This document shows, piece after piece, positions 15,001 to 21,000 of a stretch of 64,000 nt of DNA. The position numbers are program-made. The DNA is from an uncultured Gemmatimonadales bacterium (GTDB taxonomy: Bacteria; Gemmatimonadota; Gemmatimonadetes; Gemmatimonadales; GWC2-71-9): contig CAWGED010000019.1 of the NCBI GenBank assembly GCA_963821525.1, positions 32,001 through 96,000 on the forward strand, read 5' to 3'. The stretch's first letter is position 1; the number at the start of each line of letters is the position of its first letter.

Positions 15001-18000
15001 CGCTCGCTCCGACACTTCCCTGCTCCGGGACCCGGGGAACGATGCCGGCGTTGAGCAACGCGACGAGGGCCTCGACCAACGCGGGACGAACTCCGCTGGT
15101 GGGGCGCAGCAGCACGTTGGCGCGGAGCAGCATCGGCGGCCCGCACGGCGTCTACCCACAAGGGCGATCCGACGCCGGCTGCGTGACTCCGGATGAGATT
15201 GACCTGAAGCTGATCGAGCTGGCCGGCCGGCACTCTCACATTGGCGAGCTTTCCGAAGCCGGTGTTGATGCCGTAGATGGTTTCGCCCGCCGCCACTGCC
15301 TGATCAACCAGACCGCGGCTTCGCTCGAGGCGGGCCAGCGCGTCGCTGCGCAGCACGATGCGCGTTTCGGGCGAGCGCGCGACCTGGACCACATCGTCGA
15401 TCGAGAGGTCCTGGCCACTGAGCGCTATTGTGGGGGCCGGCATGGCAACAAGAGTAAGCGATACACCGGGTACAGAGAACAGGGCCCATAACGAGCGACC
15501 CTCCGCGGCGGGGCCGGGAGGGTCGCAGGTTAATGGTGAGATGGAGAGGCTAGTGGGTGCCGCCCCTGCCGACCAACAGCTCGATGTTGCCGGGATCGGT
15601 CTGGAAGGACCAGTCGACGATAATGAAGTTCTTGCCTGCGTGAGTGACGCGAAGCGCGCCAAACCGGGCGAAACCATCCCCGCCATCCATTTCAAACACG
15701 TAGCCCCAACCCGGCAGCGCCTCCAGACCGGCCAGCCCAAAACCGTTGACCGGCGCGGCGTCGATACTGGTGAGGTCGGCGACCGGTGCGTTGCCATAGA
15801 GCGCCACCTTGGTGCCCGCTCGGACCGGCGTGATGAAGAGAGCCTCACTGGCGTCCCGCTCCACCGAGAAGTCCTCGCTGGGAGAGGAGCCGAGTCCGAC
15901 CACTCCAATCTCATTCGGCTGCGCCACGCCATCGTGGTTGAAGTCGTTCCAGAAGCGGAACCCGCTCTCGTCATCCTGTTGCTGCCTGGCGTAGAGAACC
16001 ACATTGCGGGCATCCGGCCTCGGCGTGTCCTGGTGAATCGGTGACCAGAGACTCTCGAACCCTTCGATGCTGATCGCCGACACTCCGAAGCACCGCGGAG
16101 AACCGTTCGGGAGAGCACCGGCGACGAACTCGGGGGCTACCGTGGTTCCCTCAAGAGCCCACTGGTCGAGGCAGAGGTCGTTGTCCAGATCGTATGGAGT
16201 GCTGTAGACCCGATAGACCTTGAAAGCCGACGGATCAGAGGCGAAGGCGTTGTCGGACCAGGTCAACGCGATCGCGCCATTCAGAGAGGTCGTGGTCAGA
16301 GTGGCCGGCTTCTGAAGCGCGAGGCGTTCATCCACGGTTATGACATTGCTCGGCCCGCTCTCGACGCCGGCTTGATCCTCCGCAGTGACGTAATACTGGA
16401 GATGCGGAATACCGTTGTCGTGGAACGTGCTGGAAGTGGTCGATCCCCGAAGCAGGTACGACTCCGAGGTAGAACCACGGGAGTAGATGTGCCAGACCGC
16501 GAGGGCGGGATTCCCGTCGTCCTCCCAGCTCAGCAACACGCCGCTGGGCGCGCCGGGGGTGCCACTGGGTTCCACTTCGTAAGTGAGGTTCGCCGGGGGC
16601 GCGACTTGTCCGCCACCGCCGCCGACGGGGTTGGTGCCATAGTCGTTGCAGGCCACCAGGGCTGCGAGAGCGAGGGCCAAGGCCGGCATCGCGCGGGACA
16701 TCGTAGTCTCCATGTCGGGGAATCGTCAGCGCTATAGGCAGCCCGGATGCCATCCGGGGCATTATCGTAACTCATTGTGATATTGGTAGTTACGTATTAG
16801 TACCAGGTTTCGTTGATGTCCCCGGGTGCGGACAATCCATCGTCATCGGACTGCGGATTTGTTCAGCGGGAGACTAAGCAGGGGGTCTTGTGCTGCGGGA
16901 GCTGCGCAGACCGAGGCTACCGCTCGAACGTGGTCTGGTTGTAGTCGCCTTTGATTTCAGGCATGTCGGAGAGGAAGATCGAAAAATAGAAGGAGAAGTT
17001 GCCGTTCGCGTTGCGGACGAAATTGAAGGCGGCCCGCCATTCGTGGAGGTTCCGCTCCAGCCGGACCACGTTCGATTCAAAGTCCTTATCGGTGATGTTG
17101 TACTGGGACGACCAGGACACGGTCCACAAGGGCGTCGGAGAGAAGGACGTGCTGAAGCCCAGATTCTGCCGAGTCGGCTGACTCAACGCTGCGGTCGGGC
17201 GGGTACGTGAGAGCGTGTAGTTGAAGTTGGCGGTGAAGCGGCGGCTGCTGAATCCGGGCTGCAGGGCGTTGTTGTCCGACGTATAGAACGAGGGGGGGCG
17301 GCCGTTGCGGCTTTGACTGGCTACGTACGAGGGCGGGGGCGGTTCGTTGGTTCCCTGCTTTGCGGGCTTGGCCAGACCGAACAACCGCAGCACCGCGTTT
17401 ACCGTCCCACTGGAGACCGCAAAACCGGTCGTAGCGCTCGAAAGGAAGAGGTCGAAATGGCTCGCATCAAACCCGACGGGGCCATTCCAGAGGTCATGCG
17501 TCAGACTCAGGTTGAACCCCGGAACGAGATCGCTCTGGAACGTGTTGGTCACGCTCTGAGTCGTCCACCCATTCCGTCCCGGTTGCTTGGCCTGCTCGAA
17601 GTCGTAGGACACCGCAGATGTGGTAATTCCCAGCAGGCGGTATTTCCTCGTCTGGTCCTGTTCTGTTGAATCGGCGACCGTCGTATCGCCGGCCGCTTTC
17701 TTCGCTTTGCCTTCGATGTTTTGCGAGAGGCCGATGCTCAGGGTCTGGGTAGCAGGGGTGCGAGTCGAAACGGGCTGTCCGGGCCCCACGATGGCGCGGG
17801 CAAATTCCTGGGAGACGCTCGCCGCCGGATTGTAGGTGTAACTGATGGTCGGTGAGACGCTGTGCCGGATCCGGGCGATCGGCCCGAAGCCGGGGAAGAA
17901 TCCGAAGAAGGTCGGCGAGGACGTTACGCCGAAGTTGAACCGCTTGCCCTGAAATACCCAGTCCCCATTGGTGTTGCGATTGCGGATGGCGAACGGCCCA

Positions 18001-21000
18001 ATCGAGCTCGCGTTGGCCACACCCAGCACAGGCTGGAGTTTCCACGAGGCCCGAAACAGCGTAGGAAGGTTGATCCCCGTCTCCCAGTCGAAACTGCTGG
18101 AGAAATCCCCAGTGAAGGTCCGCGCGACGATGATCGAATCCGTTGGATCGGGTGTCGAGGGATCGGGAATCTTGATGGGAAGAGCGGTCAGCGACCCCTC
18201 ACGCTTCTGGTCGTTATAGGCGAAGGAGTTCCGGAAGTCCCAACCGCCGAAGCGGACCGGGGTGTCGAAGTTCATCGCGGTGGCCCGCTGGTCGAACGTC
18301 GAGCTCAGGGTATCCTTCCCGCCGCCGGGCAACACTCGGACCTGAGCATTCGGGCTGTTGTTGGTGAGATCATTGGTGATGCTGAACCCGGGGGACCACG
18401 TGATGTCCCTGGTGATGTCGATGGGCTTGGGAGAGATGGCCAGCGCCGGAAGCTGCATCGTGGTCGGCTGCCCCGTGGAGAGCGGCTGCCGGCGGTTGGC
18501 GCCGAGGTTCACGTTGCCCCAGGCAAAGCGCTTGGAAAAATTGGCGGAGCTGAGGATCTGCTGGGTGGAAAGCAGGGGATCCAGCGCGTTGTCGCTCACC
18601 ACCTGGGAGTTGCTGGCGTAGTTCAGGCTCAGGTTGAGCGAGGTACTCAGGTCAAAATTCTGGCGATGGTCCCACCGGATGTTGGTCGACGAGGACCCGG
18701 TGTTCTCGTGCTGCTGGTTGTAGGCAATCGCCCCGCTCACAAATCGGTTCAGCCAGCGGTACTGCCCTGCCACCCCATACTGGACATAGCGATTGTCGTA
18801 GAAGTCCAGCCGGGCGGTGAAATCCAGGTAGTCGTTAGCCGCCCAGTAGTAGCCTACGTTGGTGATTTGCCGATTGTACCCGCCGTTGGGTCGGACAATG
18901 TCGTTGAGCCCGAACCGCGGAATCAAGATTCCCGAGTGCCGGCCGGGCCGTCCATCCGCCCAGACGAAGGGGAGCCAGAGGACCGGCACATCCCGCACAT
19001 AGAGGACGGCGGGCCGAGCGATCATGATGGTCTGCGCGATCCACTTCACTTCCTTGGCGGAAAAGTGGTAGTGGGGCTCGGGTAGATCGCAGCTGGTGAT
19101 GTCGCTTGAGGAGGCGTAGACCCTTGAGGCACTGGAGTCCTGGGCCAGATTTCCCCGCAGAAACCAGTCGCTGCTGTTCTGCTTGAAGCTGGTGAGCGCC
19201 TTGGTCACGACTCCGCGCCGAATGCAGGTGTCGTAGCGAATGCCACCGCCGCCGGTCAGGACCGTCTCCCCATCGAAGAGGTTGGGAGTTCCCGAGGCCT
19301 CGATGAGACACGTGGTCTCCTGGTACAGAATCGAATCCGCCTCGAGCGTTGTGGTTCCGCGGCGAGTCATCGCCTTGCTGTCGAGGAAAATGCGGCGCTC
19401 GTCGGCGAGGACTGTGGCCGAATCCGATCGGTACCGCGTGGCTTCATACCCCTCCAGGAGCTGAAGCTCGGCGAGAGTCGAATCGTCGGGGGCGAAGGTG
19501 TAGCTCGGACCGGTGGGGAGACCAAGCCGACGGGCCGTTGCCGTATCCACCGCCTGGCCGGGCCGGACCCGGGTCGAGTCGGGGGGAAGGGTATCCCCCG
19601 GACCCCGTTGCACCGGCCGTCCGGGCTTGGGTGGGGGCACGGGCTGCTGGGCTGCAGCCCGATCCGGCAGGGCGAACAGAGCGAAGAAGATTACCGCGGC
19701 CGTGGCGGCGCGCCGGCGCCGGCGGTCGATGACCCAGGCGCCCACGAACCCGACCTCGTAAAGCAGCCACAGCGGCACGGTCATCATGATCATCGAGAGT
19801 ACGTCGGTGCCGGGCGAAAGGATTGCTCCGGCGAACATGCAGAGTACCATCGCGTAACGACGGAACCGGTGCAGGCCCATCGGCGAGATGACACCAACCG
19901 CCGCGAGGAGGATGATGACCAGCGGCAACTCGAAAGAGATCCCCATCGCGAGCACGATCTGCAGCACGAAACTGAAGTACTCGTTGTAGGTAATGACGAG
20001 CGCCAACGCCTCGGACTGGAAACTGAACAGCACGCGCAAAGCCTGGGGCAGCAGGTAGAAATACCCCAGGGACGATCCGGTCAGGAACAGGACCAATCCG
20101 AATCCCAGCGCCGGCATGATCGCTTTGCGTTCCCGGTCGTAGAGGGCCGGTGCGAGGAAGGCCCAGATCTGGTATATGATGATCGGGGAGACGAGAACGA
20201 CGCCGGTGATGAAGCCCAGTTTGAGGACGATCATCACCGGATCGGTGGGACTCAGGACCGCGAGCTTCCCGCCGGTGCTGGCGAGGTAGGGAGCGATCGG
20301 CTGTTTGAGGAGTGTGACGAGCTGAAACCGCTGGACCAACCAGAGACCGACTCCGAACCCCACGACGATCGCCCCGAGGGCTCGGATCAGCCGGATTCGG
20401 AGCTCCTCGAGGTGCTCGAGGAAGGGCATCTCCGCGCCCGGACCGGTCATGCGGCCGATCCGGGTGCTACCGTCCGAGCGACTTCAGGCGATCTCGCGCG
20501 AGGGCCGCTTCGTCGGAACGGGGATAATCGGAGATGACGCGCTGGTAGTAGGCCTTCGCGCCTTCGAGATCCTTCCTGCGTTCCGCCACGAGTCCGAGCT
20601 TGTAGACCGCACTCGCCGCCCGAATCGACTGGGGTGCTGTCTCCACCACTTTCTGGTAGTAGCCCACCGCCGAATCGGGCGACTCCGCAGCGAAGCTCTC
20701 TCCGATGAAGTAGTTGGCATCAGGGACTCGAGGATCCGTCGGATACAGCCGGAGGAATTCCCGGAACCCGGTGCGCGCGGTTCCCGGCGATCCCCGCCGG
20801 AGCTGGTTCAGACTGGCTTCGTACATCTGGTCGGCTGAGGGCTGTGCAGCACCGGCCGCAGGGGCGGGCCGGGAGCTATCCGATGGAGCGGGAGCGGCGT
20901 TAAGCTGCTCTCCCCGCGCCTCGAGCTGAGTGCGGAGCTCGGTGAGACGCTGCTGGCTCTGGCCGGTTAGAGCCTGAATCTGAACCAGCTGCTGCTGAAT

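Follow-up and report, generated by a model that had tools for sequence, protein, structure and literature searches.

The window, a stretch of 64,000 nucleotides from an uncultured Gemmatimonadales bacterium, carries a cluster of tol-pal genes on the reverse strand. The end of ybgF is followed, after 16 nt, by the ATG of one long gene that encodes both TatC and an LptD_2-type barrel (Table 1). The gene for the inner-membrane Tat receptor and the outer-membrane LPS-barrel gene behind it have become one, as is confirmed for one large uncultured family of the Gemmatimonadales. A literature search found no paper on a TatC-LptD fusion. The frame measures 1188 aa from stop to stop. The ybgF-tatC order recurs in 27 related loci drawn from families f1-f12. 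The initial annotation made the fusion the last gene of the tol-pal operon. However, this is not clearly so, as a conserved gene for a 387-aa lipoprotein comes 203 nt downstream. This gene lies 3' of lptD_2 in 12 loci (f1, f2, f3, f7), and the top structural matches of its product (model pLDDT 80) are FN3 tandems.

Table 1. Features of the locus, with positions counted along the window
Feature	Position	Strand	Basis or remark
Upstream tol-pal genes	20467..25011	-	ybgF 20467-21273, pal 21273-21995, tolB 21908-23191, tolA-like (TonB_2-type) 23188-23880, tolR 23877-24371, tolQ 24310-25011
Whole tatC-lptD_2 fusion gene	16917..20450	-	1177 codons plus stop at 16917-16919; one open frame, ATG start; both domains above Pfam cut-offs
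TatC domain, residues 8-240, six transmembrane helices	19731..20429	-	PF00902; TIGR00945; model helices 9-256; 4b4a match
Arg cluster R243-R247	19710..19724	-	Cytoplasmic end of TatC TM6, predicted to double as n-region of the internal signal peptide
h-region A248-L261, 14 residues ("seventh helix")	19668..19709	-	Sequence varies freely in 96 fused proteins; as long as in unfused N-terminal signal peptides
c-region P262-A267 with predicted signal peptidase I site A265-A266-A267, before Q268	19650..19667	-	Residue counts at -1, -3 and -6 to -4
Q268, predicted first residue of mature LptD_2	19647..19649	-	Invariant in 96/96 fused proteins
Pro-rich low-confidence linker, residues 269-335	19446..19646	-	pLDDT <50 for 249-294; conserved motif D302...F319
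N-terminal beta-jellyroll-like domain, ~residues 336-475	19026..19445	-	Model strands 338-470; profile match to LptD 8h1r_A
Large outer-membrane beta-barrel, ~residues 476-1177	16920..19025	-	LptD_2; ~30 long strands in model; Foldseek
Downstream 387-aa lipoprotein gene, conserved	15550..16713	-	LVAC lipobox-like N-terminus; tandem FN3-like fold, not LptE-like
tatA (88-aa ORF)	9831..10097	-	PF02416 match at 9936-10025 (contig 41936-42025), 38 bits, above cut-off

The two halves of the chain

Translation and Pfam searches bear out the initial description of a 1177-aa open frame with a complete TatC and an LptD_2 domain. The TatC family PF00902 matches residues 12-226 (E 6.3e-60; 203 bits against a cut-off of 25.1), and the NCBIfam tatC equivalog TIGR00945 scores 199.6 bits against a cut-off of 132.7. 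Residues 8-240 match TatC (e.g., Aquifex aeolicus TatC, 4B4A; E. coli TatBC, 9DZZ) over their full length by Pfam, by the equivalog and by PDB-sequence profile. The profile search against 4b4a gives E 1.4e-60, and Foldseek aligns the model with the same structure at TMt 0.78 and 38% identity. In contrast to these proteins, the fusion has no stop after TM6, and a seventh hydrophobic segment and ~910 more residues follow. A single TatC and a single LptD_2 are encoded in the genome (81.5% complete), and the TatC part of the fusion is the only Tat receptor of the cell. The tatA gene of the initial annotation is indeed present, not far from the fusion, and Tat-type signals are found in the genome.

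The C-terminal part scores above the cut-off of the Bacteroidota-type LptD_2 family PF19838 (E 6.2e-35; 121 bits against 22.5). The match falls into two stretches, the best at 477-675, with separate scores of 7.0e-27 and 3.1e-9. As in LptD of the LptDE translocon (4Q35, 5IV9, 8H1S), the model shows a jellyroll ahead of a barrel of very large size, and the first 16 Foldseek hits are, without exception, chains of LptD (E 1.3e-21 to 3.4e-12). The jellyroll region matches residues 157-330 of LptD 8h1r_A by profile (E 0.0078), and residues 447-600 weakly match LptD PRK03761. However, the protein differs from canonical LptD. Identity to solved LptD structures is only 8-12% (TMt 0.41-0.57), and canonical LptD (PF04453) has no match in the genome of the window or in 30 other genomes of the family, each at least 95% complete. 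In the Bacteroides thetaiotaomicron control, PF19838 detects a match and PF04453 gives none. A further difference is that the barrel, whose function is predicted, is synthesised as the C-terminal portion of a chain that begins with TatC. The claim that this is the only LptD-family protein of the genome stands, at 81.5% completeness.

What might the barrel do? LptF/G and LpxC are encoded in the genome, lpxC being spread over two frames in this assembly. The LptD_2 part is the sole LptD-family barrel found and hence probably the LPS-insertion barrel. This role is not secured, because neither LptE (PF04390) nor an LptD_N/LptA-type domain (PF03968) was found in the 81%-complete genome. Nevertheless, both halves look functional. 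For TatC this follows from the equivalog score, the 4b4a match, its status as sole TatC and the presence of tatA and Tat-type signals. For LptD_2 it follows from the Foldseek ranking, the lack of PF04453 in all 31 genomes and the presence of LptF/G and LpxC.

Distribution and origin of the fusion

Could the fusion come from misassembly or a frameshift error, or be a gene in decay? The split lpxC is at least one gene of the assembly that might prompt the suspicion, but the distribution refutes it. Both domains occur on 119 of the best 120 database relatives (Pfam). Of the 150 matches listed from 201 genomes (78 genera) in the family of the window, 146 run through the junction in a single frame that no stop interrupts. 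Among Gemmatimonadales MAG contig loci 30/31 are fused, the remaining one being cut by the contig end, and open junctions are also found in independent assemblies of several sources. Moreover, both halves exceed curated cut-offs and 96 fused proteins can be aligned over their full length (mean column identity 66%). The chance of an artefact is therefore negligible, as had been argued initially from fewer genomes.

The carriers found are all metagenome-assembled genomes, with no cultured strain among them. The initial annotation expected much of the order to carry the fusion. However, it is the adjacency of tatC and lptD_2 that is widespread, reaching across the phylum, whereas the fusion is confined to the window's family and part of one genus (g54, family f2). 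In 28/33 unfused loci, from 11 families of Gemmatimonadota, the two genes abut or overlap, with lptD_2 in a frame different from that of tatC. These separate genes share with the fusion the ybgF-tatC-lptD_2 order, the linker, the barrel and the small-x-small-Q signal peptide. They differ in that tatC has a stop and lptD_2 its own start, where the window has a single frame. Unfused LptD_2 begins with an ordinary N-terminal signal peptide, small-x-small and then Q (e.g., L004, L017, L022, L033, L086, L087). The one unfused genome reported initially was recovered as G413, in which a 1110-aa open frame has the N-terminus MMGRGLLIGCATASILVVPGAGAA and then QE. The origin of the fusion would be best explained by loss of the tatC stop, with the frame running on into lptD_2.

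This appears to be a change that can go either way. The fusion in g54 is a second one, with a different junction that keeps a 35-50 residue TatC tail and has the same signal-peptide features. In G025, G033, and G066, the cluster no longer includes tatC, and ybgF is followed by a solitary LptD_2 that has a signal peptide of its own. A tree built from 114 LptD_2 rows requires at least nine changes between the fused and unfused states, eight of them forced by well-supported branches, although some single-genome "splits" in otherwise fused genera may be MAG frameshift errors, which would mean fewer real reversions. Because of these changes, the separate g54 fusion and the departures of tatC, the two states are interchangeable, and the fusion is probably close to neutral. 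The initial annotation saw in it a purposeful 1:1 ratio of the two products. This is not supported, since a state lost or gained at least 8-9 times looks near neutral.

The junction between the two halves

The fused junction occupies the same place, ahead of the same linker, as the signal peptide of unfused LptD_2, to which it is homologous. Its features were compared across 96 fused proteins with 56-81% identity to that of the window. The 12 residues ahead of the hydrophobic run have a net charge of +2 to +6. The distance from the last basic residue to position -1 has a median of 21 (18-25; 63 fused proteins), compared with 19 (15-24) in 18 split-adjacent proteins and 19 (18-20) in three without upstream tatC. 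The median apolar core is 18 in all three groups. By these measures the geometry is that of a signal peptide and not that of a lengthened anchor. In the AlphaFold model, residues 217-256 form a single continuous helix with pLDDT <50 from residue 249, and the model's picture of the junction is not usable.

The cleavage motif is conserved. Position -1 is A in 84 fused proteins, G in 10 and S in two. Position -3 is A (48), L (37) or V (5) in 90/96, with G (2), T (2), S (1) and M (1) making up the remainder, and P and G are frequent at -6 to -4. Position +1 is always Q and +3 is P in 81/96. Indeed, Q268 is the sole invariant residue between G234 and D302. Among 140 signal-peptide-like N-termini in the genome of the window, 36.4% have Q as the first polar residue that follows, against a background share of 10.5% and 9.8% after internal hydrophobic runs. 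This supports the view that the junction helix is the signal peptide of LptD_2, kept intact in mid-chain. The cleavage site is probably under selection in the fused state, but its conservation could partly be inheritance instead. A signal peptidase I gene is present in the genome. A point against cleavage is that the predicted site is located behind six transmembrane helices. To our knowledge, signal peptidase I cutting at sites behind several transmembrane helices is documented for few bacterial proteins.

Perhaps the junction is a twin-arginine signal, as the initial annotation allowed, so that the Tat pathway itself would carry the C-terminal part across the membrane. Five Arg residues do run ahead of the hydrophobic stretch, Arg is found at -4 in 30/96 fused proteins, and internal Tat-dependent helices are known from actinobacterial Rieske proteins. 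However, TM6 of unfused TatC ends in the same basic cluster, which therefore belongs to TatC. Unfused LptD_2 signal peptides are often without RR (KR in L004, RLR in L022, a single R in L024), the consensus has no F-L-K-like continuation, and outer-membrane barrel proteins cross the inner membrane unfolded via Sec. Export by Tat is thus highly improbable.

Another thought is that the chain stays uncut, as a seven-helix TatC tied by the Pro-rich linker of ~65 residues to a periplasmic jellyroll and barrel, thereby linking the inner and outer membranes. The gene does lie in a cluster for the envelope-spanning Tol-Pal proteins, and the linker is long, disordered in the model and, by rough geometry, could span the periplasm. 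Seven of its residues (D302, A306, R308, G310, P312, P315, F319) are invariant in the 96 fused proteins. Unfused orthologues of families f1 and f3 have this D302...F319 motif too. Since unfused orthologues with a normal cleavable signal peptide have this linker, it is not a tethering adaptation. Moreover, an anchor has no use for the residues kept at -1, -3, and +1, and the hydrophobic stretch is not longer than in unfused signal peptides. The repeated loss of the fused state, by splitting or by tatC leaving the cluster, is also hard to square with an important tether. We regard an uncut chain as unlikely.

A further alternative is that translation of LptD_2 begins mainly inside the fused gene, at a codon shortly ahead of the signal peptide, with the read-through chain as a minor or tolerated by-product. 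The ancestral lptD_2 start was in this region. Most genomes have an in-frame GTG near the junction, and one GTG has an SD-like motif upstream in 10/46 fused junction DNAs, that of the window included. However, GTG accounts for 72/131 Val codons there (55%), which is no more than the background of 56%. An in-frame ATG occurs at 6/46 junctions, 5/46 have no ATG, GTG or TTG from -10 to +8 codons, and no start codon is conserved among the 46. In addition, tatC has no stop, so every ribosome translating it enters lptD_2 and inevitably produces the fused chain. A main product from an internal start is decidedly improbable.

A proposed pathway for the fused chain

The remaining reading, to which we give a probability of roughly 77%, is that Sec inserts the chain and signal peptidase I cuts between A267 and Q268, yielding a seven-helix TatC and free LptD. 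The six TatC helices would insert co-translationally with both termini in the cytoplasm, where the juxtamembrane cluster R243-R247 would remain. As the former signal peptide, the 14-residue hydrophobic stretch would go in N-in/C-out and initiate Sec-dependent export of the C-terminal part. Signal peptidase I would then cleave behind A265-A266-A267. The released LptD-type precursor, starting at Q268 (possibly cyclised), would go to the outer membrane as it does with separate genes. Of the initial proposal, an internal signal peptide gains from having the same position, length and -1/-3/+1 site as in unfused orthologues, and we infer membrane insertion, topology and the functions of both products.

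A precedent is FbcH of Bradyrhizobium japonicum, a cytochrome b-c1 precursor that is cut at an internal signal peptide. As proposed for the fusion, one chain holds a polytopic inner-membrane protein and, behind it, an exported one whose internal signal peptide is cut by signal peptidase. The proteins are different, and the products of FbcH share one inner-membrane complex, whereas those of the fusion would belong to unrelated machines in two membranes. Cleavage has been demonstrated for FbcH; for the fusion we infer it from the conserved motif.

What would the organism gain? Possibly a little, in that a long barrel precursor would be brought to the Sec channel co-translationally behind TatC. 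As for the other product, if the chain is cut as proposed, the old signal peptide would stay on as a seventh helix, and the fusion-derived TatC would end in the periplasm.

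TatC and LptD_2 in a single chain

The gene behind ybgF in the tol-pal cluster encodes TatC and LptD_2 in one frame. The TatC part is complete at residues 12-226 (Pfam PF00902, E 6.3e-60, 203 bits against a cut-off of 25.1), covers positions 1-208 of the 208 in the profile and also matches the NCBIfam tatC equivalog TIGR00945 (199.6 bits, cut-off 132.7). LptD_2 (PF19838) is likewise above its cut-off, with 121.2 bits against 22.5 and an overall E of 6.2e-35; the match falls into two stretches (7.0e-27 and 3.1e-9 taken singly). The gap between the end of ybgF and the ATG of the fusion gene is 16 nt. 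Scans for promoters and terminators in its vicinity stayed at shuffle level and are uninformative on operon boundaries.

Features of the TatC-LptD_2 locus in the window
Feature	Window position	Strand	Remarks
tatC-lptD_2 fusion ORF	16917-20450	-	ATG start; 1177 codons in one frame, stop-free
tolQ, tolR, TonB_2-type tolA, tolB, pal, ybgF	5' of fusion gene	-	Pfam/ORF calls
Lipoprotein gene, 387 aa	15550-16713	-	203 nt 3' of fusion gene
Conserved motif, residues 302-319	19494-19547	-	between predicted signal peptide and jellyroll
tatA	9936-10025	-	tatA Pfam match

The whole chain was modelled with AlphaFold2 from a 96-row alignment (mean pLDDT 76). The helices of TatC are present, confidence is low over residues 249-294, the strands at 338-470 are jellyroll-like, and a very large barrel extends to residue 1160. 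In Foldseek, LptD chains from LptDE complexes fill ranks 1-16 (E 1.3e-21 to 3.4e-12, TMt 0.41-0.57, identity 8-12%). TatC structures rank after them, with 4b4a at TMt 0.78, 38% identity and an rmsd of 3.6 over 231 columns. The model has the six-helix fold of TatC, by comparison with 4b4a, as well as an N-terminal jellyroll and a very large barrel that resemble solved LptD. A profile search of PDB sequences found TatC at E 1.4e-60 and, weakly, the LptD chain 8h1r_A at E 0.0078. The two parts are a predicted Tat receptor and a putative LPS-insertion barrel.

The genome (81.5% complete, 19 contigs) holds one TatC and one LptD_2. The canonical LptD domain PF04453 is absent from the fusion protein according to Pfam and, by profile search, from the genome at this completeness. 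Another 30 genomes of the same family, each at least 95% complete, gave no match to it either; a Bacteroides control was likewise silent. Signal peptidase I and LptF/G are encoded. A TatA partner is present, and crude pattern scans picked out a small number of candidate Tat substrates whose N-termini carry a motif of the RR-x-F-L type. Searches of this 81%-complete genome gave no match for LptE (PF04390), for the PF03968 domain, for which the Bacteroides control was silent too, or for glutaminyl cyclase (PF05096; the search did not extend to the M28-type enzyme). The lipoprotein encoded downstream was considered as a stand-in for LptE and dropped. No Pfam family matches it, and the structure modelled for it (pLDDT 80) is a beta protein of FN3-like units in tandem that does not resemble LptE. 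Its gene is kept directly 3' of lptD_2 in 12 related loci of four Gemmatimonadota families (f1, to which this genome belongs, f2, f3 and f7). LpxC is present, yet divided over two frames. Its pieces lie outside the window on contig C5 (1125359-1126166), with a TGA inside, and cover profile positions 1-92 and 89-267. This is either an assembly frameshift error or a broken gene.

Is the fusion real? It is no artefact. Both Pfam domains occur in 119 of the 120 best database relatives of the junction (query residues 150-560), which are mostly 1156-1196 aa long and bear the source name 'TatC' of Gemmatimonadales or Gemmatimonadota. Within f1 a junction match was obtained in 192 of 201 genomes (78 genera). 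Among the 150 matches listed, 146 read through the junction in a single stop-free frame. The four exceptions among those 150 are stand-alone LptD_2 genes in genomes G025, G033 and G236 and a match with a TAA in G419. Two separate weaker matches, read from the genome table as the split state, occur in 29 f1 genomes. These tallies take in genomes flagged as unpublished (G057, G097, G182, G406, G457, G494), which account for 4 of the 146 and were not used for sequence. Contig records, all titled as MAGs, give the same picture: of 31 loci from Gemmatimonadales or Gemmatimonadota, 30 show the fusion and the remaining one is cut by the contig end. The fused gene also occurs in typical form, with 59% identity over the junction, in a record under the title 'uncultured Actinomycetes bacterium' (L103, CAWCEB010000142.1); the MAG label or the binning of this record is probably wrong. 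Judging by titles and the starts of abstracts, no description of a TatC-LptD fusion was found in the literature, including that on Gemmatimonadetes LptD. One such paper lists lptD as one of the genes it surveyed (PMC8871954).

The junction segment

TM6 ends at about I241. It is followed by a basic cluster (R243-R247), 14 hydrophobic residues (A248-L261), the stretch P262-A267 and then Q268. These correspond to the basic n-region, the hydrophobic h-region and the c-region with a helix breaker of a Sec-type signal peptide. The placement does not fit this type, as the segment begins with R243, after the six helices of TatC. Unfused orthologues carry the homologous segment at their N-terminus.

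The predicted signal peptidase I site is conserved in 96 aligned fused proteins (56-81% identity to the one described here). Counted from the cut, position -1 is A in 84, G in 10 and S in 2. Position -3 is A in 48, L in 37, V in 5, G in 2, T in 2, S in 1 and M in 1, which places 95 of 96 within A/L/V/G/T/S. P and G are frequent at -6 to -4, and +3 is P in 81. Position +1 is Q in all 96, so Pro is found there in none. Q268 is the sole invariant residue between G234 and D302, and the hydrophobic stretch varies freely.

The segment was also compared in length. Where a pattern located the site, the median span between the last basic residue and -1 is 21 residues (18-25) in fused loci (63 of 77), 19 (15-24) in loci with split, adjacent genes (18 of 29) and 19 (18-20) in loci without tatC upstream (3 of 3). 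The median apolar core is 18 in all three groups. Lengths are alike in fused and unfused proteins, and therefore the junction segment has not lengthened into an anchor of the usual kind.

The initial annotation proposed that the signal peptide might be of the twin-arginine type. An S/T-R-R-x-F-L-K motif at the junction was rejected on three counts. TM6 of unfused TatC also ends in an Arg cluster, RR is often missing from the signals of unfused LptD_2, and the consensus of the fused proteins has no F-L-K continuation after the cluster. The sequences instead suggest that the cluster is the positive-inside tail of TatC in a double role.

Why should Q268 be invariant? Among 2033 frames of this genome that are coding with confidence, a crude rule (small -1, allowed -3) picked out 140 signal-peptide-like N-termini. 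In 36.4% of these, Q comes as the first polar residue, against a background share of 10.5% and a share of 9.8% after internal basic-plus-hydrophobic runs. This preference resembles a partial 'Q-rule'. Such a rule, with pyroglutamate formation, is described for the signal peptidase I substrates of Bacteroidetes and reportedly does not extend to the FCB group as a whole (PMC5837995). The term 'Gemmatimonadetes' does not occur in the main text of that article. The invariant Q makes sense if Q268 becomes an N-terminus.

The junction does not look like a concealed translation start. Junctions were cut out with an HMM-anchored script, which placed two sites (L042 and L054) a few residues early. The junction DNAs of 46 fused genes (about 45 genera) contain no conserved in-frame start. 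GTG makes up 72 of 131 junction Val codons (55%, background 56%), and an in-frame ATG occurs in 6 of the 46 junctions. In 5 of 46, ATG, GTG and TTG are all missing between codons -10 and +8. In 10 of 46 a candidate start has an SD-like motif ahead of it.

Origin and loss of the fused state

The two genes were neighbours before they were fused. HMMs built from fused proteins were used to score 40 tatC loci, which represent 11 of the 12 phylum families sampled. The fused state is seen in 7, tatC and lptD_2 lie in separate touching or overlapping frames in 28, and tatC stands alone in 5. In 27 loci ybgF precedes the pair. The pair adjoins across the sampled families and thus goes back to the ancestor of the phylum. 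Beyond Gemmatimonadota (Eisenbacteria, LCP-89, Bacteroidota), tatC was found within 1.5 kb 5' of lptD_2 in 0 of 49 loci.

Unfused LptD_2 opens with an ordinary signal peptide that ends in small-x-small and is followed by Q. Examples are locus L004 (MKRAPRPLGISALVALLILGAVPGVAA, then QERP), locus L086 (MKGRTRGGLGAVIALAVAASAAWA, then QVP) and locus L087, the case cited in the initial annotation (MMGRGLLIGCATASILVVPGAGAA, then QE). In f1 and f3 the Pro-rich linker and the motif D302...F319 come after the unfused signal peptide as well. This motif (consensus DTATARRLGLPT-P-R-F; invariant D302, A306, R308, G310, P312, P315 and F319) occurs in fused and unfused LptD_2 of both families and is absent in f2.

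A FastTree of the N-terminal region of LptD_2 (233 columns, 114 rows) requires at least nine changes between the fused and unfused states, eight of them forced by well-supported branches. The sample was enriched on purpose for unfused f1 cases. It comprises all Gemmatimonadota loci with enough sequence and 5 of 49 outgroup loci; L005, L008-L010, L023, L032, L118 and L119 were left out, as they lack the region or are too short. Read most simply, the genes fused once at the base of f1, whose sister f3 is split, and again in g54, a genus of f2, and the fusion was later lost several times. The g54 junction differs in that it retains a TatC tail of 35-50 residues.

Losses are of two kinds. In one, the frame is split and a new start is used (genera g2, g160 and g162, and genome G112 within the fused genus g27); single-genome splits could partly be MAG errors. 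In the other, tatC is gone from the cluster, which reads tolB-pal-ybgF-lptD_2 with lptD_2 directly after ybgF (L084 in G025, L085 in G033, L086 in G066), and a tatC of different type lies on another contig. A second, f2-like TatC type is also found away from the tol-pal cluster in some f1 genomes (TatC loci L005 and L008-L010). Of the polyprotein initially proposed, the predicted cut site and the homology of the segment to signal peptides stand. A twin-arginine signal, a selected 1:1 ratio of TatC to LptD and a spread of the fusion over the order are not supported.

Processing of the precursor and its meaning

The most likely explanation, to which we give a probability of roughly three in four, is a precursor that would be inserted by Sec and then cut by signal peptidase I between A267 and Q268. 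The predicted products are a seven-helix TatC and an LptD-type precursor of the normal kind. The nearest known mechanism is that of FbcH, the cytochrome b-c1 precursor. Alternatively, the chain might stay whole and tether TatC to the barrel. This is unlikely, as the cleavage site is conserved, the length of the segment is unchanged, the linker is also present in unfused relatives and the fused state has been lost repeatedly.

What if only part of the chains escaped cleavage? That a sizeable share does so is rather improbable. If true, these bacteria would have their sole TatC covalently joined to the outer-membrane LPS-insertion barrel, by a Pro-rich linker of sufficient length to reach across the periplasm. 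One polypeptide, whose gene ends the Tol-Pal cluster, would pass through both membranes, and LPS insertion or Tat export could be positioned at Tol-Pal sites.

Cleavage at the internal site would make this a rare and naturally replicated case of an inner-membrane protein and an outer-membrane barrel produced as one chain and parted at an internal signal peptide. There is also a consequence for gene surveys. The fused proteins of 1160-1200 aa are named plain 'TatC' by their sources and are missed by canonical LptD models; therefore, surveys of outer-membrane genes would score f1 as lacking LptD. Finally, the fused, split and tatC-less forms in close relatives offer a ready comparison of how signal peptidase I and Sec handle a signal behind six helices. 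The same comparison bears on whether co-translational delivery aids a barrel precursor of 900 residues.
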